28,447 bases of DNA from a virus (taxonomy: Duplodnaviria; Caudoviricetes), in IMG/VR virus record IMGVR_UViG_3300044216_001692, positions 1 to 28,447 of that record, one strand, 5' to 3'. A program made the position numbers and the translations under genes. The notes beneath the pieces are model-generated. The model had not been told where the DNA came from, made no database searches, and saw nothing but the letters and a program-made list of their open reading frames with translations. Below are positions 5,176-20,557 of this stretch, piece after piece (the first letter of the stretch is position 1; each line of letters begins with the position of its first letter).

Positions 5176-6183
5176 CTAGAGAGCTTGTTCTAATGCGACC
5201 TTAGCGTCAAGAAAATTCCTAGGCGTCAGCTTGGCGTAGCGCAGGGTCATCTCGTAGGTGCGGTGTCCCATCCATTCTTTAACCACATGAAGTGGTACAT
5301 TACGTTGGACTAAGCGTGACGCACAGGTGTGCCGTGTCAAATAGAAGACAAACTCTGGGTCTACATCATTCATAGTCTCACGGACGAACCTCCAGTTCTT
5401 ACGGATGTTACTTTCCGTGAACTGGGCAAAGGGCATAAATTCAGTAGCCGATAAATAAGTGAACGCAAAGTGCGCTCTTTTGGTTAACGGAATGGTACGT
5501 GGGTAAGCGTTCTTGGTCTTACGCAGGTCAATAAGGTAACCTAGCTCTGGGTCTTCACGAAGAGACGCCTGAGACACATTACGAGACTCTATAGGACGCA
5601 TACCTGTGTCGATGCTCCACTCAAGGAAGTAAGCAAAGTGATTACGCCCGTCGGCACGCAAAGCCTCAAGCATTTCATACTCTTCTTCTTCAGTAAAGAA
5701 ACGTAGGCGTTGGTTGCTAACTTTCTTACGCTCAATCTTAGGTCGGCTGTTTATGTAGCCCCTGTCTTGTGCGTAGGTGAGAGCCTTAGAAACCGTTGCA
5801 AGACGTCCGTTGATGGTAGAGGCCGCTAAGCCTTTACGCTCCATTGTTCCTATAAATTCGTCAAGAGAAGATGTGTTTATTTTATCTACTGGCTGGGTAG
5901 CTCCGAAGAACTCATTGATAAGACGAATATTACCTAGCTGTGTGGACTCGTTTGCGGTGTCTTCCCAATAACGCACAAAGGTCTTACTCAGTAACTCATC
6001 AATAGTAATCTTACCGTCTTTGGCGTCGAGTAGCTCTTGATAAGGCATATTAAGTCTAATGCGTTTCTTTAGTTCTGCTTCCCAAGCGTATGCCTCTTCT
6101 GAAGTAGGGAACTGCTTACGATGTCGCACTCCGCTAGACATAAAGTCAGCCATAAACTTGTTGCCGTTTTGTCTTACGCTCAT
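5176..6183 (-). CDS. int: Tyrosine recombinase / phage integrase
   Basis: TGMRPIE (Arg), RKTKN (Lys), YLTRHTCASRL (HxxR box with Tyr in place of His), WMGH, TLRYAKL (Tyr). N-terminal arm-binding-like segment RHRKQFPTSEEA. Confidence 0.96.
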   Translation of the reverse strand: MSVRQNGNKFMADFMSSGVRHRKQFPTSEEAYAWEAELKKRIRLNMPYQELLDAKDGKITIDELLSKTFVRYWEDTANESTQLGNIRLINEFFGATQPVDKINTSSLDEFIGTMERKGLAASTINGRLATVSKALTYAQDRGYINSRPKIERKKVSNQRLRFFTEEEEYEMLEALRADGRNHFAYFLEWSIDTGMRPIESRNVSQASLREDPELGYLIDLRKTKNAYPRTIPLTKRAHFAFTYLSATEFMPFAQFTESNIRKNWRFVRETMNDVDPEFVFYLTRHTCASRLVQRNVPLHVVKEWMGHRTYEMTLRYAKLTPRNFLDAKVALEQAL

Positions 6184-6660: not shown

Positions 6661-6816
6661 TTATTTAGCCGATAAGTATACTATAATTACAAATAAGCTA
6701 ATGTTAATCGTGATTAGTGTATAAGCTATGATTTTATCAGTATGTTTGTATATATTCCATGTTTTTGTAGGGTTTTGTTTGAGCGAAGTAGAGCCAGCAG
6801 GTGCGGACGCTACCAT
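6661..6816 (-). CDS. Possible 51-aa single-pass membrane protein (not in ORF track)
   Basis: MVASAPAGSTSLKQNPTKTWNIYKHTDKIIAYTLITINISLFVIIVYLSAK. It overlaps the end of the GGCT gene and ends just before the terminator. Start uncertain. Confidence 0.35.
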   Translation of the reverse strand: MVASAPAGSTSLKQNPTKTWNIYKHTDKIIAYTLITINISLFVIIVYLSAK

Positions 6817-7741
6817 CGGTGAGTTCTATGTCGGTTAGTTTACGTTCATAGAAATTTGGGTGAGACTCTAGGTGGTCTAGTGATACTCGGACGTTATCGT
6901 CGTGAACTTCGTAGACTTCTACATTGATTTGGTCACGATGTTCGTGTTCGTATACGTAAGGTATACCTGATTTTTGCATTGCATACTTGCTGACAGTTTT
7001 GCCAACACCGACTAGGCTAGAGTTACCTAGAACTGAATGGTTGCTGAAGCCAGACTTGAGTGTGCCGTAGACAGCTACGAGGTTAACGTCCTGCCAGTCG
7101 TATAGGTCGGCAATAGGTTGGTCGTCATATACGCTGGATGTGTCAGACATGTCATATTGTTCGGTGTATAAGTAGTCGTCATTGTCCCAGTAATCTTCAT
7201 ACGTTTTGTATGTAGGTGTGTAGGTTTTACCATAGTGGTAACCAATGGTGGATTGTCTGGTATGGAAGCAGTTGTTTTTGGAATAGAACACGCCGTCTTT
7301 TTCGTGCCATTTTCCGTAGCGCGATACACTACCGTCTGGATATGTGATAGCGAATCTAGTGTCGGTCATGCTTAGCATAGGTTCCCATGTATCTTGTTTG
7401 AAGGCTTTGAGATAGCCCGCGACAACTGCGGTGTCACAAGTGTCTTTGTCACCAAGGTCGGCAACAGTGCCGTTACTGAACAGACGTATGAGGTCTTGGA
7501 CGTGGTAAGGATGGCAAGTAGCTTTGTCTACTGCGCCGCGTGTGGCGAAACGATAATGAGCAACGAATGGACGTTTGGTTATGACAAGCTCGTGAGCGTG
7601 GTTGTAATCCATAGTGCGGATACATTCGTTGGTGTCAGTGTAAACAATACCAAAGCCGTCTGGATTGATGGATTCTGCATTGTCGAGGATATGTTGCGGT
7701 ATGATAGTGTCCGCGTTTGGTTTGTGTATTATTAAGCACAT
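6737..7741 (-). CDS. Class II (Ntn) glutamine amidotransferase fused to a C-terminal gamma-glutamylcyclotransferase (AIG2/GGCT-like) domain
   Basis: N-terminal nucleophile Cys (MCLII), NPDGFG, AHYRFATRG, CHPY, SNG, DTCDT. After a Tyr/Asp-rich linker come VAVYGTLKSGFSNH, VEVYEV and LDHLESHPNFYER of the GGCT family. Confidence 0.88.
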   Translation of the reverse strand: MCLIIHKPNADTIIPQHILDNAESINPDGFGIVYTDTNECIRTMDYNHAHELVITKRPFVAHYRFATRGAVDKATCHPYHVQDLIRLFSNGTVADLGDKDTCDTAVVAGYLKAFKQDTWEPMLSMTDTRFAITYPDGSVSRYGKWHEKDGVFYSKNNCFHTRQSTIGYHYGKTYTPTYKTYEDYWDNDDYLYTEQYDMSDTSSVYDDQPIADLYDWQDVNLVAVYGTLKSGFSNHSVLGNSSLVGVGKTVSKYAMQKSGIPYVYEHEHRDQINVEVYEVHDDNVRVSLDHLESHPNFYERKLTDIELTDGSVRTCWLYFAQTKPYKNMEYIQTY

Positions 7742-7762
7742 AGTATTGTGTGTATTGTGTGG

Positions 7763-7960
7763 TTAGGATTGGTTAATTTGTTGGTCGGCTCTCCAATCAA
7801 TTTCGGCAGTTGATATTTGAACTTCGATACCTTCACCTACTGAGACGTAAATGCTTCCGTCATCTTCGTTGGCTGGTATATCGTTGTCTTTGAACCATTG
7901 CAGTGCGAGTTTAATATTGCCGTCTAGGAATAATGTTTTTATGTTTTTGTTTTTATCCAT
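7763..7960 (-). CDS. Hypothetical 65-aa protein
   Basis: Tightly packed between the amidoligase and GATase genes on the same strand. Confidence 0.7.
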   Translation of the reverse strand: MDKNKNIKTLFLDGNIKLALQWFKDNDIPANEDDGSIYVSVGEGIEVQISTAEIDWRADQQINQS

Positions 7961-7962
7961 GG

Positions 7963-9621
7963 TTAGTTGATGTAAGAATTAGTTAGTTGTGTGACTGAGT
8001 GTGAAGGTTGTTCTTCGTCGATATAGCTTTGGAAAGCGTATGCGTAAGCTAGAACACGCACGTGGTTTGGTTCTGCATAGCCACCGAATAGCATGTCTTT
8101 TGCTTTTTCTACGAAGAAGCGAGTGCGTGCTTGTGTTGGTGCGCTGATGTTGGATAGAAGCTGTTCGATTTTGATGCACCATGATTTGGCGTCTTCGTCT
8201 GTAGTATCCATCCAGTTAGGTATGCCTTGAATTTTGTCATCGTAAGAAGCAGTCATCCAAGTGAAGTCTTCATTCATGTAGTGTTCTATGCACTCTGCTA
8301 GAGCTTGCATAAGTTTGAAGCGACGTAGGATACATGCGCGGTCTTTGACTCTGTTAGGTAATCGTAGTTCGAACCTAGTGTTGCTACGTAATCTGCCTTT
8401 TTCTACGAGAGCGCCGTAGTGATGGTCAGTGCCACGATATGGATTAAGCTTTTTGTTACAGCTTGCGTATTGATTGGTTAATCGTTTTTTCCACATAGAG
8501 AAGATGAGACCAAGCCAAGGACGGATGTGCCAGTATTGCATTTTGTTTTCGCGGTGTGCGAAGTTGATGTGACCGCCGCATCTATTGTTGGTGTTTAGGT
8601 CTATGTATTTGCTGTCGCAGGCGTCATCGAAGAACTTTTCATAGTTGTCTAGTGAATAGACGTTTGTGATGCCTTCGATACCGCATGAGCTGTCGGTTTC
8701 CCAATGGCTGAATAGTGGTTGTTGCTCAATTAAAGAGCCAGCTTCTTGGTCGCCATTGTCGAGGCAGTCTTTTTCTACTTCGAAACCGATAGTGTATTTA
8801 GATAAAGGTATGGTTTGGTCGAGTGGCAAGCAGTGGTAGTATGGCTCTACGCCGCAGTGATAGTCTTGGATAGTTTGTGTGTGGTCACGGTTTGGTAGAT
8901 TGCCTTCGTAGTAGTAGAACTCTCCGTCTAGGTGACAGTAATAGCAGTCATCTACTAAGGTGTATTGGTCAATATCTATACACCAGCGGACGTTGTCGTC
9001 GTCTGGATGAACATAGTAGTCACGACAGTCGTTGTATTGTAGGATAGAGCCTGCTTCATCTTCGTGATACCAATTGTGGTCACTTTCGCACAAGACAGCG
9101 TGAGAATTACAAATGATTTGGTCATCGTAAGTTGTTCTGACGTCGCCTCTGTATTGATAGATTGGGCGTTCGTCTGCGTTGTCTGGGTCGTCTCCATAAT
9201 GTTGAGGTGAAAGAGTAACGCATTGGTTTTTAGGAAGCCATCTGTTGCAGTAGGTAAGAACCATGTCATCTGGGTGAATAGGGTTATTGTCTTCTGCATG
9301 AAGGCATATCAAATATGAGTTTGGCATGTTTTCAGAAAGACTGCGATGTAGATTGAATCTGAATACTTCTGATTTGTGGATGTAATACCAATCATAGTCA
9401 CGCTCTTGGTTTGCACAAGCGCGAAGTCTGAATAATATAGTATCAAGAAGGGGAACTTTTTGACCAGATTTAGCGCCAAAAGTTACGACGATATCTTCAC
9501 TGTCGGGAGACCAATTTTGTCTATAGTCTTGATAGTCAGTGTGTGGTTTGATGGCTTCTTGAACAGCTGATGGCTTGTAGTGGTAAAGGAACAAGTAATC
9601 TCTTAGTTGTTTTTCGTTCAT
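7963..9621 (-). CDS. Putative amidoligase (glutamine synthetase-like COOH-NH2 ligase) with Cys/Tyr/Asp-rich repeats upstream of the catalytic domain
   Basis: IGFEVE, WETDSSCGIEGIT, CGGHINF and RFELRLP correspond to the ExE, D.S..E, H and E.R motifs of this fold. It neighbours a GATase-II/GGCT gene, as is known for these modules. Confidence 0.8.
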   Translation of the reverse strand: MNEKQLRDYLFLYHYKPSAVQEAIKPHTDYQDYRQNWSPDSEDIVVTFGAKSGQKVPLLDTILFRLRACANQERDYDWYYIHKSEVFRFNLHRSLSENMPNSYLICLHAEDNNPIHPDDMVLTYCNRWLPKNQCVTLSPQHYGDDPDNADERPIYQYRGDVRTTYDDQIICNSHAVLCESDHNWYHEDEAGSILQYNDCRDYYVHPDDDNVRWCIDIDQYTLVDDCYYCHLDGEFYYYEGNLPNRDHTQTIQDYHCGVEPYYHCLPLDQTIPLSKYTIGFEVEKDCLDNGDQEAGSLIEQQPLFSHWETDSSCGIEGITNVYSLDNYEKFFDDACDSKYIDLNTNNRCGGHINFAHRENKMQYWHIRPWLGLIFSMWKKRLTNQYASCNKKLNPYRGTDHHYGALVEKGRLRSNTRFELRLPNRVKDRACILRRFKLMQALAECIEHYMNEDFTWMTASYDDKIQGIPNWMDTTDEDAKSWCIKIEQLLSNISAPTQARTRFFVEKAKDMLFGGYAEPNHVRVLAYAYAFQSYIDEEQPSHSVTQLTNSYIN

Positions 9622-14617: not shown

Positions 14618-17600
14618 TTATTGGATTAAGCGATATTGTGATTTTTCTTGTTGGAGTTGAGCGATAGAATCTTTTAGCTCTGGAAACTCTTCAAGCATTT
14701 CAAAGCGAGCCTTGCGACGGTAGGCACGAACTAGGCGTTGTACCGCTTTAATTCTTGGCGATATCTCACCGAGGTCGTCCTCGCTTTCTTTTGGTAGAGC
14801 TTGGTAACCTTTGTCTTTCATCATTTGACGTAAGGACTGACGCATGGTCTTTCCTCCGATTTTAGTTGTGCCTGAAAGCTCCAAGTAACGGTCAAACGCT
14901 TGGCGTCCTTCCGAGTTGTATACGTCGCGCATTTCAAGGGCGTTGTATAGCTTGGTGCTAGGCTGACTAAAGCCGTGCTGTAGTCCAGCTAGTTCTTTGT
15001 CTACAATGTCTTTGCTTTCCTTGTTAAAGTATATCGGATTTAGAACGCCTAACATGTAAGGGCTGTTCTGGTTCTTTATGACTTCACCTAGGAAGTTTCT
15101 GCGCGACGGAAGGGTAGCTTGTGCTATTGGAACTTTCTTGAGCCAGTAGTCAAAGATAGAACGTGTTTCCTTGAGTTCACGCTCATCAGCCATGTTTTGA
15201 ACTTGAGTAAGAAATGTAGGAGCAAAGCCACCAACAATGTTACCAGCAAACGGCTTGAAGTTACCCACTGGGTCACGCACCAACTGAAGCAGTGTATCCA
15301 AGCCCTTAACGTAGGACTTGTTAGTTACGTTCTGCGTTAGTGACAGGACACCTAGAGCAACCATATCTTGACTGATGATGTCTTCTACGTCGTGGTATTG
15401 TTGACCTTCGATGATGTCAGCAAACAAGCCAAGGATTGTAGCAATAGGGTCAGCCCTTTGGTAACTGTAGTAAGTGTCGCCTACTTTGATTGAGTAAGGT
15501 CTCCAGCCTGACATACGCAGGGCTTCAAGTTCGTCTCTGTTAGGTGGCCCACCGCCTGTAATCATACCTTTGTTGGTATTCATGTAGTAAAGTATAGCCG
15601 CAGTTGCCGCCGTGCTGACAGTAAGTTTACCTATAACCTGAGCGCGAACCATTGGGTCTTCACTCGTTAGCTGTTTGGTAAGCTCTGCTCTCTTTGCTTT
15701 GGTTGCTACCATGCCGACACTGCCTAACGGAGTGCGGTCAATAGAGAACTTCAAGATGTTCGTAGGAGTCCGTAAGAAAGGAATAACGAAGTTAAGTGTC
15801 CTCCAAGCTCCTCCTTTGTTCTTCAAAGTATTAAGAGTATTAGACAGCGTTCCAATTACTCCTTCGTTGTTAAGGTCGTTGGTAAACGTTGTCTCCTCAG
15901 CAAAGCCCCTTGCGGCGTCTGCAAGACCACTACGCGTTTCATCAAATGGGTTGTCCTTGAGATACTGGGCAATGAACTCTTCTTGCTCTTTACCAAACTT
16001 TAGTCCTTGGGCTTGTGCCGCGGCGACAGCATCCATGTAGATGCCCTTTTCGTTGTAAGCTCTAGCACCTTTGGTGATAAAGTTGTCGAAGTTCTTGGTT
16101 ACATACTCAGCAATCTCGTCGCCTGACTTGGCTCCCTTTTTCATTGCTTCGTAGGCGAGGTTTGTCTTCACATAAGAACGATAGTTCATTTGCTTGAAGA
16201 ACTCATCACCAAACGCTAGGGCGCGACTAGGAACACGAACGACTGTACCGAGCATATTGATAGCTTTAGCTAAAGTTCCGTCACCGTCTTTTGCAATGGC
16301 TCTAGAGGTCTCCATCCTGTCATCAAAAGCTCTGCTTCCTTGAACAAGTCGAGACTCCCCTGTCATAAATGTTTTTGCGGCGATTTTTACTACATCAACG
16401 ATAGACTCCATATCAAAGGCATACTTCAGCGTTGCTCTGGCTAACTGAGGGTCTCTTATCAATACAGAGCCTACCGTTTGTTCAATAGCCCGTATAGCAA
16501 GAGTTAAACTGTTACCTAACAAGTTGACCACCTGAGTAGTAGGGCCTGAAAGCAAGGAGTTCATCCATACTTCCATAGTGACATCCATAGCTTTACTACC
16601 GAAGGTCTGCTCTGCTAGGTCTGTAGCTTGTTTAATTTTTTCTTTCTTTGCGTTTGCTTTTCCTATGGCGTCAAGTGCCTTTTCTGCATCTTTTTTTGTT
16701 TTGGATTCAGCAAGTAGTTTTACTATCTTTTCAACTGGCATTGTACCAGCACGGTTTTCATTAAGGAACTTGTCATATTCTTTTGGTGTAGCCGTTTTTG
16801 AATCAAATCCAATGCCGCTCTTAATACGATACTTTCCGCTTGGGTCGAGAAGGAACTTACGTTGTACTAGGGTCAGCCCTGCTTCACGTCCCATTAAAGA
16901 CCATATTCGTCCTACCTCTTGCATTTGGTCAAGGGTAGATAGCAACTGTACTTCTAGTTGTTTCTTGTTAAGAGCTGGATTTACTTCGGCATCTCTTGCT
17001 AAGTTTGCGGTGTCAACAACGTCGGCAGTCATTACGTCAATAAGCTTGTAGACCGCAGTCTGTACGTTGCGGTAGTTGCTTAGGTCTATTTGGTCTGTAA
17101 GTCTACCAATAGTAGCCGCGTAGTCTCCTGCGTTGCCTCCTAGTGTATCTATTACATCAGCGTTTTCAGCTATTAACTCTTCAGCACTTACAGGCTTAGC
17201 TGTAGGGGCTTTCTCAAGGTTCTTTGCTATGGCTTGCACTAGGGCAACCGCTTGGGTTGTGTTGCGGATACCTCGTGCAAAGTTAGCTATTGCTCCGTCG
17301 CCGCCTGTCTCAAGGTCATTAGCCATACGAGCAATGCTCTCTTCGATGTTCTGGTCGAGTTGGCGTTGTCCCATCGTAATGTTGTTGCCTGAATTAGTAA
17401 GACCTAATAATTTACTTTCTAAATAAGCAAAAGTTTTGGGGGCTCTACGCGGTAAATCAGCTAGCCCTGTTCCAAGTCCATCTTCAGGAACAACAATAAC
17501 GGCATTGTCTGGTAATTTAGCAAAAGCTTTATCTATAGCGGCTTTATTATCTGCGAGTTCGTCGTCAGTAAAATAAGCTGACTCGTCTCTTCTAGGAGCC

Positions 17601-20557
17601 TTTTTCGTCGGTATTCCTATTGCATTAGGTTCGTCACGAACAATCGCCTGTCCACCCTTTCCTTTTCCTTGTAGGTTATCTCCAAATAAATAAAATTTAT
17701 CTGGGTTCGTCTTTAACACTTCTGGAGAAATTCTTTTTATAGTCTCAACGCGGCGTTGTCCCATCGTAGAGCTATAAGTAAGAAAGTGGATTCTAGACCA
17801 GATAGACTCTGGAGCTTTAGACTGAGAACTAACGTATCTGCCTCTTTCTCGTGCGGCCGTAATTGAGTCAGGCATACCTTGACCTTTTGCTCTTTCAATG
17901 TCTGAGGAACGCTGAGACTTACCTTGTAAACGTATTTTGCCTGTAGTTGGCTCTCCTCTAAGGATTTGTTGGGTCTCAATATACTCCTTTAGGCCCATTG
18001 TGCGGTTCTCTGCTTTACCCCCTCGGCCTCCGCGGTTACGTACGTAACGTGCATAGGCTTCCTTGGGAGTTACTGCGCCTTGGTTGACGGCTTTAAAGTA
18101 ATCCTCAGCATCCTTGTATGGCGCTGTGCCTTCTATCGCACCGTAGGGTCGTGCAGGAGGGATAGACTTAGATTTCGCTTTACCTTTTACTGGCTCTAAA
18201 ACCTCTTCTAAGTTTTGCCGTGATTCGTCTAGTTTACCTTCAAGTGTCTTTCTTTTTGCAGGGGTAAGGTTTTCGTCCTTTAGTTCCTTTTCAAGCTTTC
18301 TGACTATAGACTTAGCTTTTGTTATCATTTTTGGAGTTACTTTTACTTTAGCCTTTGTCGCTTCTTCAAAAGAAACATATGGAGCATAACCCGCTTCAAT
18401 AGCGTTTAGTTCTGCTTGGATGCGGTTCTTTACTCCTGCGGTGAGTGCCTTGTTGTTGTAGCGCATCGCCGCTTTTAGGACGTTAGTAGGTATCTCGGAT
18501 AAGTCCTTACCAAAGAAGTTGCCTCTAACAGGCCACTTAAATGCCCCCATAGTCCTGCCGCGCTCTGGTGTCTGAGTTTTGTCAACTTTCATTTCGCCGA
18601 CTTCTCGTCCAATACGTGGTCTATCTCCAGTATGATAAATAGTGTAATCAGCACCTAGCTCATCTAGCCAATCTATAAATTGACTATCTACGCCAGACAT
18701 ATCGCCAACAACAAACTCCGCACCATTGTCGTGTGCGTTCTTAATAGCTACTTTGGTTTCGCCGCGTAATTCTTTTCCACGAAGTGTTCCATTTCGTGCT
18801 AGCATGATTATCGACGAGTCCTCTGTGGGCGCACCCAGACGGTCTAAAGATGTTTGACTTGAAGATGGCTTAGTTCTTCCTTCTTGAATCTCTACAATAG
18901 CAGAGTCGGCAACGTCGCGCATCGCTTGGTCTTTACCATCTCCCTCACGAGTTCCTTTTCCTCTAGGGTCAAATCCTCCTTCAAACCTCCGTAGCTTTGC
19001 TCCTAAAGTGGGAAGCTCTCGTTGACCCATTGTTCGATTGTTGAGGTCATCAATAGACTTTAGATAATCAAACCCACCATCAAACATAGCATCTTGGTCA
19101 CGAACTAATTCGTCTGTGTACTTAAATACATCGTCTAACAAACTTGCTTGGCTATCGTTTATTCCAAGCATCTTCTTGATGACGTCCATGAACTGGTCAA
19201 ACATCGTTTTGGAAGCCTGATTAGTGCTTGGTATTTCCATTAAGACTCGGCGAAACTCTGGGTTCGTAAAGGCTTCGGAAATGAACTCATCTAAGTTTGT
19301 TAGGCCGTAAGGTTGTCCTACAATTTGTTCTGCTCGCCTAATGTCTTCTTTGGTTCTACCCTTAAATACTGCGTCTTCTACATCAAGAGCCTTTACAGTT
19401 TGCAAAAAGACATCTGCAAACCCTCCGATTGTTTTAAAGGCTTCTTTATTTTGTGCAAATAGTTCTAATTGCTCTTTGTCTGCAAAAGCTAAGCGTGACA
19501 TTTTTACTCCGTCATCGCCTTTTACATTTAAGTCTAATTGTCTACCTATTGATAGAAAATCTTCTTTAATTTTTTGTCCAGTTGCGGCGTGTAGAAGTTC
19601 ATGCACCAAGGTACGCGCTCCTCCTTCATTAAAGTCGATGGCGTGTCTGGAGGGGCTATAAATGGTTCTATCTTTAATGCCTGATTGAGGCCCAAAAGTA
19701 AATTTAGCTGTCTTTAATGATTCACTTCCGTTTTCTATAAGAGCTTCTAGAAGAGGCTTTAACTCACCGCTATATGTACTGTTAAATTGCTTAGCTACTT
19801 CAAGCGCACTAACCTCAGTACCGTCGTCTACAATGCCTTTGCCAAACGCTTTTATAAATGCTTGGTCAACAATATCTCGGAAGTCTTGGCTCGTTTCAAA
19901 GTCTTCGCGGGTTAACTCATCGTCACGAAAGCGGTCATAATTAAGGTCTTTTAGAATGTCCTCGTCGGCTTCTCCAGCACGTTTACGCTTGATGAATTTG
20001 ACACCCATCAATAAGCTGTCTGCTAAGCCACCAATCCCAAGACCTTCTATGGTATTCTTGAAACGTCCTTCTATCTCGCCGTCGTCTTCATCAGCGGCTA
20101 GGAATTCTGTTACTGGATTAGATAGAGAAGGGAACGCCTCTATAAGGTTACTAAGACGTTGCTCTTGTGCTTGGAACACGCTGAAGTCAGCTACCGCTCC
20201 TGCGGCGGCATAACCCTTGAGGTTTAGTGCTTTCTTACCTGCTTTGCCTACCTTGGTAAGTGCGCCTATTCTACCTGCAACACCTGCCACTGGAATGAAC
20301 CCAGTGAGGAACTGTGTGACTCCCTCGCCTAACCCACCTACAAACGTCTGAGAACGCCCTAGAAAGCGTTCGTTGTAGTCTGGCAAGAGGTCGTCCCCTG
20401 TAGCGAAGTCAGCAAGGTCATAGATACCTTGGATAGCTCCTTCAACACCTCTGAAAGGCGAAGCGAGTACATCTAAAAAGAAGTTAGGTTCTTCTTGAGG
20501 ATTAGGGGTAGGCCCCGTGCTACGGGTAGCTGATTTTGCGAGTTCTTCTATTGCCAT
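14618..20557 (-). CDS. gp16: Large internal virion (ejection) protein, gp16-like, with inserted peptidase-like and cargo domains (1979 aa)
   Basis: Position after the gp14/gp15 equivalents and before the tail fibre. The C-terminal half has NSLLSGPTT, DEFFKQ, IPFLRTPTN and GWRPYSIKVGD, typical of large virion proteins of such phages. Confidence 0.85.
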   Translation of the reverse strand: MAIEELAKSATRSTGPTPNPQEEPNFFLDVLASPFRGVEGAIQGIYDLADFATGDDLLPDYNERFLGRSQTFVGGLGEGVTQFLTGFIPVAGVAGRIGALTKVGKAGKKALNLKGYAAAGAVADFSVFQAQEQRLSNLIEAFPSLSNPVTEFLAADEDDGEIEGRFKNTIEGLGIGGLADSLLMGVKFIKRKRAGEADEDILKDLNYDRFRDDELTREDFETSQDFRDIVDQAFIKAFGKGIVDDGTEVSALEVAKQFNSTYSGELKPLLEALIENGSESLKTAKFTFGPQSGIKDRTIYSPSRHAIDFNEGGARTLVHELLHAATGQKIKEDFLSIGRQLDLNVKGDDGVKMSRLAFADKEQLELFAQNKEAFKTIGGFADVFLQTVKALDVEDAVFKGRTKEDIRRAEQIVGQPYGLTNLDEFISEAFTNPEFRRVLMEIPSTNQASKTMFDQFMDVIKKMLGINDSQASLLDDVFKYTDELVRDQDAMFDGGFDYLKSIDDLNNRTMGQRELPTLGAKLRRFEGGFDPRGKGTREGDGKDQAMRDVADSAIVEIQEGRTKPSSSQTSLDRLGAPTEDSSIIMLARNGTLRGKELRGETKVAIKNAHDNGAEFVVGDMSGVDSQFIDWLDELGADYTIYHTGDRPRIGREVGEMKVDKTQTPERGRTMGAFKWPVRGNFFGKDLSEIPTNVLKAAMRYNNKALTAGVKNRIQAELNAIEAGYAPYVSFEEATKAKVKVTPKMITKAKSIVRKLEKELKDENLTPAKRKTLEGKLDESRQNLEEVLEPVKGKAKSKSIPPARPYGAIEGTAPYKDAEDYFKAVNQGAVTPKEAYARYVRNRGGRGGKAENRTMGLKEYIETQQILRGEPTTGKIRLQGKSQRSSDIERAKGQGMPDSITAARERGRYVSSQSKAPESIWSRIHFLTYSSTMGQRRVETIKRISPEVLKTNPDKFYLFGDNLQGKGKGGQAIVRDEPNAIGIPTKKAPRRDESAYFTDDELADNKAAIDKAFAKLPDNAVIVVPEDGLGTGLADLPRRAPKTFAYLESKLLGLTNSGNNITMGQRQLDQNIEESIARMANDLETGGDGAIANFARGIRNTTQAVALVQAIAKNLEKAPTAKPVSAEELIAENADVIDTLGGNAGDYAATIGRLTDQIDLSNYRNVQTAVYKLIDVMTADVVDTANLARDAEVNPALNKKQLEVQLLSTLDQMQEVGRIWSLMGREAGLTLVQRKFLLDPSGKYRIKSGIGFDSKTATPKEYDKFLNENRAGTMPVEKIVKLLAESKTKKDAEKALDAIGKANAKKEKIKQATDLAEQTFGSKAMDVTMEVWMNSLLSGPTTQVVNLLGNSLTLAIRAIEQTVGSVLIRDPQLARATLKYAFDMESIVDVVKIAAKTFMTGESRLVQGSRAFDDRMETSRAIAKDGDGTLAKAINMLGTVVRVPSRALAFGDEFFKQMNYRSYVKTNLAYEAMKKGAKSGDEIAEYVTKNFDNFITKGARAYNEKGIYMDAVAAAQAQGLKFGKEQEEFIAQYLKDNPFDETRSGLADAARGFAEETTFTNDLNNEGVIGTLSNTLNTLKNKGGAWRTLNFVIPFLRTPTNILKFSIDRTPLGSVGMVATKAKRAELTKQLTSEDPMVRAQVIGKLTVSTAATAAILYYMNTNKGMITGGGPPNRDELEALRMSGWRPYSIKVGDTYYSYQRADPIATILGLFADIIEGQQYHDVEDIISQDMVALGVLSLTQNVTNKSYVKGLDTLLQLVRDPVGNFKPFAGNIVGGFAPTFLTQVQNMADERELKETRSIFDYWLKKVPIAQATLPSRRNFLGEVIKNQNSPYMLGVLNPIYFNKESKDIVDKELAGLQHGFSQPSTKLYNALEMRDVYNSEGRQAFDRYLELSGTTKIGGKTMRQSLRQMMKDKGYQALPKESEDDLGEISPRIKAVQRLVRAYRRKARFEMLEEFPELKDSIAQLQQEKSQYRLIQ

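Follow-up and report, generated by a model that had tools for sequence, protein, structure and literature searches.

Does a phage ejection protein that carries its own peptidase cut itself, and if so at which sites? The question is raised by one long gene in the 28,447-nucleotide stretch of viral DNA analyzed here, hereafter the window (IMG/VR record IMGVR_UViG_3300044216_001692, Caudoviricetes). Annotation searches show that the window comes from a T7-like phage; its genes include those for RNA polymerase, integrase, terminase, tail and internal virion proteins. The gene (14618..20557, minus strand) encodes a 1979-aa protein that matches phrog_6651, an internal virion protein family (E 4e-50), and sits between the gp15-position gene and the tail fibre gene; the resulting order, gp13-gp14-gp15, 1979-aa ORF, tail fibre, in a phage with a T7-type RNA polymerase, places it at the gp16 position. 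The gp15-position ORF has no family match and is itself assigned by position. Both ends of the 1979-aa protein match “internal virion protein D” of pelagi-, roseo- and cyanophages in tblastn, and the C-terminal part has profile matches to the solved internal virion/ejection proteins 9sfn_G and 8vb2_A (PDB; E 2e-5 and 1e-4). On the basis of ORF, profile match and gene position we classify it as a polyvalent internal virion (ejection) protein, and gene position together with homology suggests that it is packaged in the virion and ejected. As in internal virion protein D (gp16) of the marine Autographiviridae HTVC119P, CRP-114 and Syn5, it occupies the same position and has both scaffold halves (21-32% identity). 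In the top cultured gp16 matches, however, the halves lie within about 3.2-3.4 kb, with no room for the window's block of peptidase and cargo (~860 aa). Since the cultured phages match the two ends only, we read the protein as a gp16 scaffold with an inserted block.

Three further features of the surroundings were recorded. A tyrosine integrase gene (window 5176-6183, minus strand) lies directly upstream of the RNA polymerase gene, and this adjacency suggests that the T7-like phage is temperate. Within window 6737-9621 (minus strand), a 552-aa ORF with no Pfam, PHROG or NCBIfam match adjoins a GATase-like and gamma-glutamyl cyclotransferase fusion; from its motifs it is presumably amidoligase-like, as in phage amidoligase-GATase-GGACT clusters. 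A 95% identical relative (P0002, also L001) is labelled as coming from an Idiomarina MAG; it is probably a phage contig binned into that MAG, so the label is unreliable as to host.

Of the 208 proteins that a homologue search with aa 1060-1979 returned, 120 were listed, the window's own among them, and the clade counts below refer to these listed matches. Their alignment resolves the protein into two scaffold halves and what lies between them. The N-terminal half (aa 1-200; 19958..20557, minus strand) is glycine-rich, has mildly hydrophobic stretches by hydropathy, and is conserved among the listed matches in relatives both with and without a peptidase; the C-terminal scaffold (aa 1062-1979; 14618..17374, minus strand) is defined by the homologue search and by the phrog, tblastn and PDB profile matches. 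As judged from these alignments, the order of the inserted block is peptidase, optional modules, a conserved middle core (about aa 670-925; 17783..18550, minus strand) that accepts further inserts in relatives, and further optional modules. Listed relatives that are 86-92% identical in aa 1060-1979 range in total length from about 1650 to 2270 aa, and this variation is confined between the peptidase and the C-terminal part. An NCBIfam search of 13 proteins gave no useful match. Several unrelated, variable domains are combined in one large virion-region polypeptide, as in the phage polyvalent proteins of Iyer et al. 2017 (PMC5512222), which likewise combine an HExxH peptidase with unrelated effector-like domains; relatives of the window's protein carry ART-PolyVal and LPD37. 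Unlike the proteins described there, those studied here have as their base a T7-like gp16 scaffold divided into two halves.

The block opens with a predicted zincin-like metallopeptidase domain (about aa 209-509; 19031..19933, minus strand). Its HExxH motif, HELLH (aa 319-323; 19589..19603, minus strand), stands where the original prediction placed it. In an AF2 model of aa 200-526 (pLDDT 82.6), three strands are followed by the HExxH helix, and the last helix ends at aa 509. Downstream of HELLH, YGLTNLDEF begins at aa 417, and a helix in this region (19250..19309, minus strand) contains E424 and E428, either of which is the likely third zinc ligand by analogy with the zincin description in PMC5512222. 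H319, E320, H323, E424 and E428 are invariant in 33/33 aligned sequences, and a three-stranded sheet, an HExxH helix and a downstream helix with a conserved Glu together make up a zincin-like MPTase topology. The zincin assignment rests on motif and topology, since a Foldseek search with the peptidase model returned nothing significant (best zincin-type rows, E 0.5-1.4); a Pfam scan of the domain gave no match. When decayed peptidases were sought in 36 peptidase-less or partial proteins, a single fragment was recovered, at the start of one partial protein. At the boundary between N-terminal scaffold and peptidase (about aa 205-215), P0023, P0024 and P0028-P0043 share a YNQ[QA] motif, absent from the window, which may be a further site.

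The protein first drew attention through five copies of Thr-Met-Gly, taken to delimit four cargo segments. TMG does occur exactly five times, with Met at residues 510, 670, 854, 932 and 1062 (nt 19030, 18550, 17998, 17764 and 17374) and with the flanks and codons first described. Composition predicts 0.26 copies (Poisson P about 8e-6); 7 of 500 shuffles yielded any trimer as enriched, and TMG is absent from the 11 other window proteins tested. To judge by the homologues, though, the conserved linker is not TMG, or the xTMG(QR) originally proposed as the site, but [M/L/F/Y]-G-Q-x (phi-G-Q-x), which takes in three of the five copies: Met510, Met932 and Met1062. The first, site A (MGQR, aa 510-513; 19019..19030, minus strand), directly follows the last peptidase helix in the model and the clade alignment. 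Site D-left (MGQR, aa 932-935) and site C (MGQR, aa 1062-1065), the latter opening the C-terminal scaffold, each lie in one copy of a 17-nt direct repeat (17752..17768 and 17362..17378, minus strand). In the AF2 models sites A and C are both in coil at domain edges: pLDDT is below 50 from aa 510 on in the model of aa 200-526, and site C directly precedes a long helix in that of aa 510-1136, a poor model (pLDDT 50.5).

The window's clade comprises 43 of the listed proteins (the window's own and P0002-P0043; one anchor was shifted by hand by one residue). Site C reads phi-G-Q in all 43 (F 22, M 13, L 7, Y 1), against a background of 3 occurrences in 38,264 scaffold residues. At site A a looser related motif, searched for in the 60 residues after the peptidase, is found in 39 of 41 members, and in 33/39 it agrees with site C in the fourth residue; by lineage, in a grouping of our own into six, the match holds in four (R/R, D/D, Q/Q, A/A) and fails in the P0022 and P0042 groups. 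None of the next eight proteins (P0044-P0051) has phi-G-Q at site C, where they read phi-E-[NAS]; seven are complete, and catalytic residues are intact in the five aligned. The original prediction offered an alternative, that each Met is an internal translation start, and ATG is indeed present at all five sites in this genome. Yet Met1062 is replaced by F, L or Y in 30/43 relatives, TTC and TTA codons among them, and no consistent purine-rich site lies upstream of the copies, though the true start lacks one too. Because site C is Met in so few of the 43, we give internal starts practically no weight.

The two remaining copies fall outside the linker. At Met854 (17993..18001, minus strand), TMG is a private R-to-G substitution, one base from the form in relatives (ATG GGC vs ATG CGC): 12/12 close relatives read TMRL or SMRL, and TMG occurs in 0/28 matched relatives. 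TMG at Met670 (18545..18553, minus strand) is shared by 10/11 close relatives and by 0/27 of the more distant ones matched, and in the poor model of aa 510-1136 the confident part begins at aa 671, where it opens a folded core domain. Alignment and model indicate that Met670 is probably not a linker, although it could conceivably serve as a minor site.

These assignments change the picture of the cargo. The 184-aa and 78-aa segments between TMG copies are conserved core, and the notion of four cargo segments fails here, Met670 to Met932 being a single core that itself takes inserts. That recognisable domains lie between motifs holds for DUF7831 (aa 941-1047; 17417..17737, minus strand; Pfam E 1e-35), which is placed between two MGQR and is the only inter-TMG segment with a Pfam match. 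DUF7831 occurs in 102 phage records, as a single small CDS in the two that were opened; the stand-alone gene product is ~138 aa. It has no PDB sequence relative, and a viral structure search with the aa 510-1136 model returned DUF7831 proteins only. In 9 relatives it directly follows site A and its C-terminal end lacks the motif, so that homologues keeping a domain without the motif, named at the outset as evidence against cleavage, do in part exist. For the remaining segment, an optional SLOG-like cargo (about aa 514-655; 18593..19018, minus strand), the identification is a lead: Atlas feature matches to DprA/YAcAr/YpsA clusters score 0.83-0.87, under the 0.9 bar, with a low-confidence model, and searches gave no Pfam and no cultured-phage match. 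The segment is present or absent among relatives, stands in place of a ~20-aa loop of the empty allele, and has no phi-G-Q at its C-terminal end. A DUF3820-like identity proposed for aa 670-730 from resemblance found no support.

Among the modules of the relatives, matches to ART-PolyVal and LPD37 are the stronger, those to DUF4326 and to a SLOG-related family weak. For viral SLOG and DUF4326 domains, PMC9503650 describes a link to the processing of ADP-ribose signals, and by analogy the cargo may act on nucleotide or ADP-ribose defence signals. Inserts are not always bounded by motifs: the SLOG-like and DUF4326-like modules enter loops with no flanking motif of their own, and site D, filled in 27 of the 43 clade members, empty in 15 and unanchored in 1 (at a 60-residue threshold, with two short inserts scored empty), has a left copy in 15 of its 27 filled alleles, an internal copy only in 3 and none in 9. 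Scaffolds that share only about 50-58% identity can bear cargos 79-89% identical to one another, with the linker of the host lineage; in P0021, nine residues separate a donor-type linker from a host-type one. Two lineages have site D filled by a cargo of 340-430 aa that contains an EIQSD motif (P0006, aa 984-1366; P0012, P0014, P0016, P0017, P0020), with no Pfam match in the five scanned.

Repeated linkers could be maintained as peptides or as DNA, and the copies differ in this respect. Between sites A and C, 10 of 25 comparable codons are common to both where codon usage predicts 10.5, and in the FGQD lineage three of the four codons differ; codon sharing being no higher than codon usage predicts, the match between A and C is kept as peptide. 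Around site-D cargos, the left and right copies have 19/21 codons the same (8.3 expected), with identical runs of 17, 21, 22 and 30 nt in 4/8 pairs examined and of 6-8 nt in the others. Copies of a second motif, FADMP, in a more distant clade also share more codons than chance (53/71, expected 36.8); all these codon counts, drawn from related genes, lack independence. Such comparisons show that cargo gain often duplicates the linker at the DNA level. The earlier argument from codon variation to peptide selection fails for the last two TMG copies, an identical 17-nt repeat. The same runs and shared codons, the many motif-less cargos and the partial DNA similarity of FADMP copies would fit an account in which the repeats are scars of recombination, with cargo entering by duplication of a short target, the motif capping the scaffold structurally and the protein never being cut. 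We consider this unlikely: site A matches site C as peptide and not as DNA, target duplication would copy the scaffold's own sequence regardless of the insert, and, as described next, near-identical scaffolds carry different junction motifs according to their peptidase while inserts in peptidase-less proteins come without duplication.

This natural swap series consists of 60 of the listed proteins, from P0054 onwards, whose scaffold is 40% or more identical to that of P0059; excluded were P0120, which lacks an N-terminal anchor, and, as more distant, P0052, P0053, P0064, P0080 and P0116-P0119. HELWH-type peptidases are accompanied by F[AS][DE][ML]P at the C junction in 25/25 and at the N junction in 23/25, the HExTH type by [DE][FY][AS]PE at the C junction in 4/5 and by pattern at no N junction, and the HExLHGVT type by [GD]LAS[VI] in 3/4 at each end. 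None of the 26 peptidase-less proteins has any of these motifs, and no motif crosses peptidase types. The types are interleaved on the scaffold tree (both our trees are quick trees), and pairs with different types, or with a peptidase in one member and none in the other, are 94-98% identical in the scaffold. Because these patterns were drawn after inspection of the data, from related sequences, a motif-blind repeat test was also run, a pass being p 0.05 or less in 60 shuffles. Among P0052-P0119 it was passed by 21/36 peptidase-bearing and 0/32 peptidase-less proteins, 22 of the latter holding at least 136 aa between the scaffold halves. In the window's clade 10 of 46 rows passed, two of them off the motif, a low rate that is expected since the motif has only 3-4 residues. 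Four proteins (P0086, P0068, P0116, P0117) have a peptidase and a C junction with no matching motif. An exact-trimer scan of other large peptidase-bearing proteins found an obvious repeated motif in only a few and was mostly uninformative; the giant peptidase-bearing proteins P0123 and P0208 each have QLT eight times, another candidate linker code. In P0096, P0104 and P0109 a cargo that by eye resembles a SAM-dependent methyltransferase follows the peptidase, its right edge a GLASV-type motif.

Peptidase and motifs could be inherited together as one recombination block, which weakens the case, but such inheritance does not, on the sequences compared, account for the type-specific match between the two ends of a block. 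Cutting at the linkers by a host or separate phage protease, for which hydrophobic-small motifs would suit many enzymes, seems very improbable when on the same scaffold the motif changes with the embedded peptidase and vanishes without it. The co-variation is explained equally well by docking: the HExxH domain would bind the motif as an uncut peptide, for autoinhibition, capsid-core packing or translocation order, and its own target might be a host protein or peptidoglycan. Packaging without processing is described for N4 vRNAP (PMC5512222), and the phi24B and phi14:2 preprints suggest a peptidoglycan role for such domains. We regard docking as improbable: motif copies lie exactly at domain edges, and newly gained cargos, which elsewhere function as free proteins, acquire a copy at each end.

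We favor, with a probability of about 0.6, a polyvalent gp16 whose predicted zincin would cut at the phi-G-Q-x linkers, freeing the scaffold halves and cargo blocks. What upholds the idea of a polyprotein with its own peptidase is a recurrent junction motif at domain boundaries, kept as peptide, changing with peptidase type and absent without a peptidase. Cargos with no motif, the eight relatives lacking phi-G-Q at site C and the purification of N4 vRNAP, with its HExxH, as a whole protein all speak against cleavage. Thermolysin-like enzymes prefer a hydrophobic residue at P1', and for this reason the cut is proposed to fall N-terminal to the hydrophobic residue. Cleavage at the Met510, Met932 and Met1062 linkers would yield four products, namely N-terminal scaffold with peptidase, SLOG-like cargo with core, DUF7831, and C-terminal scaffold, perhaps on or after cell entry. 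The invariant cut would free the C-terminal scaffold; if the essential cuts are those that free scaffold, a cargo could do without a site on one of its sides.

Parts of this scheme have precedents. Autoproteolytic release by a zincin-like MPTase was proposed for phage polyvalent proteins by Iyer et al. (PMC5512222), whose accessible text names no cleavage motif, with 0 matches to “linker” and “gp16” in the main text. N4 vRNAP gp50 and gp65-gp67 of the crAss-like phi14:2 are, as the window's protein would be, giant ejected proteins with a zincin-like HExxH domain, and cleavage has been proposed for fused crAss-like forms; these proteins carry RNA polymerase and not a variable cassette, and the accessible text names no site motif (PMC13434306, PMC13492108, 10.1101/2020.03.07.982082). 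N4 vRNAP, unlike what is proposed for the window, purifies uncut (PMC13492108, PMC13434306). P1 DdrB and phi24B gp47 are virion-packaged MPTase proteins, as the window's presumably is; DdrB is reported to be processed to 76 kDa, the accessible text names neither site nor enzyme, and as far as tested the two are not gp16 homologues (PMC5512222, PMC9024508, 10.64898/2026.04.10.717836). Timing also differs among these systems, P1 DdrB being reportedly cut before packaging and N4 vRNAP packaged whole (PMC5512222). The literature searched, which covered main texts and few subscription papers, contained no candidate site motif and no gp16-based cassette. As far as these sources go, the polyvalent class and the autoproteolysis idea are already known (PMC5512222; 10.1101/2020.03.07.982082), and the candidate site code is apparently new.

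In the gp16 group the sites can be named, a point mutant can serve as control, and nature supplies a swap series of near-identical scaffolds with three peptidase types or none, which reduces the question of autoproteolysis to a simple expression experiment. More broadly, and at somewhat less than even odds, the gp16 loop of marine T7-like phages may be an expandable injected cassette with a protease-and-site code, in which no fewer than four zincin types would be interchangeable, each cutting the ejected protein at a site of 3-6 residues peculiar to it, in which enzymes that counter defences would be released before the phage expresses any gene, and in which cargo would be captured by site duplication, the same few bases serving as recombination target and protease site. 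If so, the protease-and-site rule may extend to polyvalent proteins generally, making their products predictable from sequence and helping to delimit cargo and to discover new counter-defence proteins, and small podophages would deliver several ready-made enzymes together with their ejection machinery.
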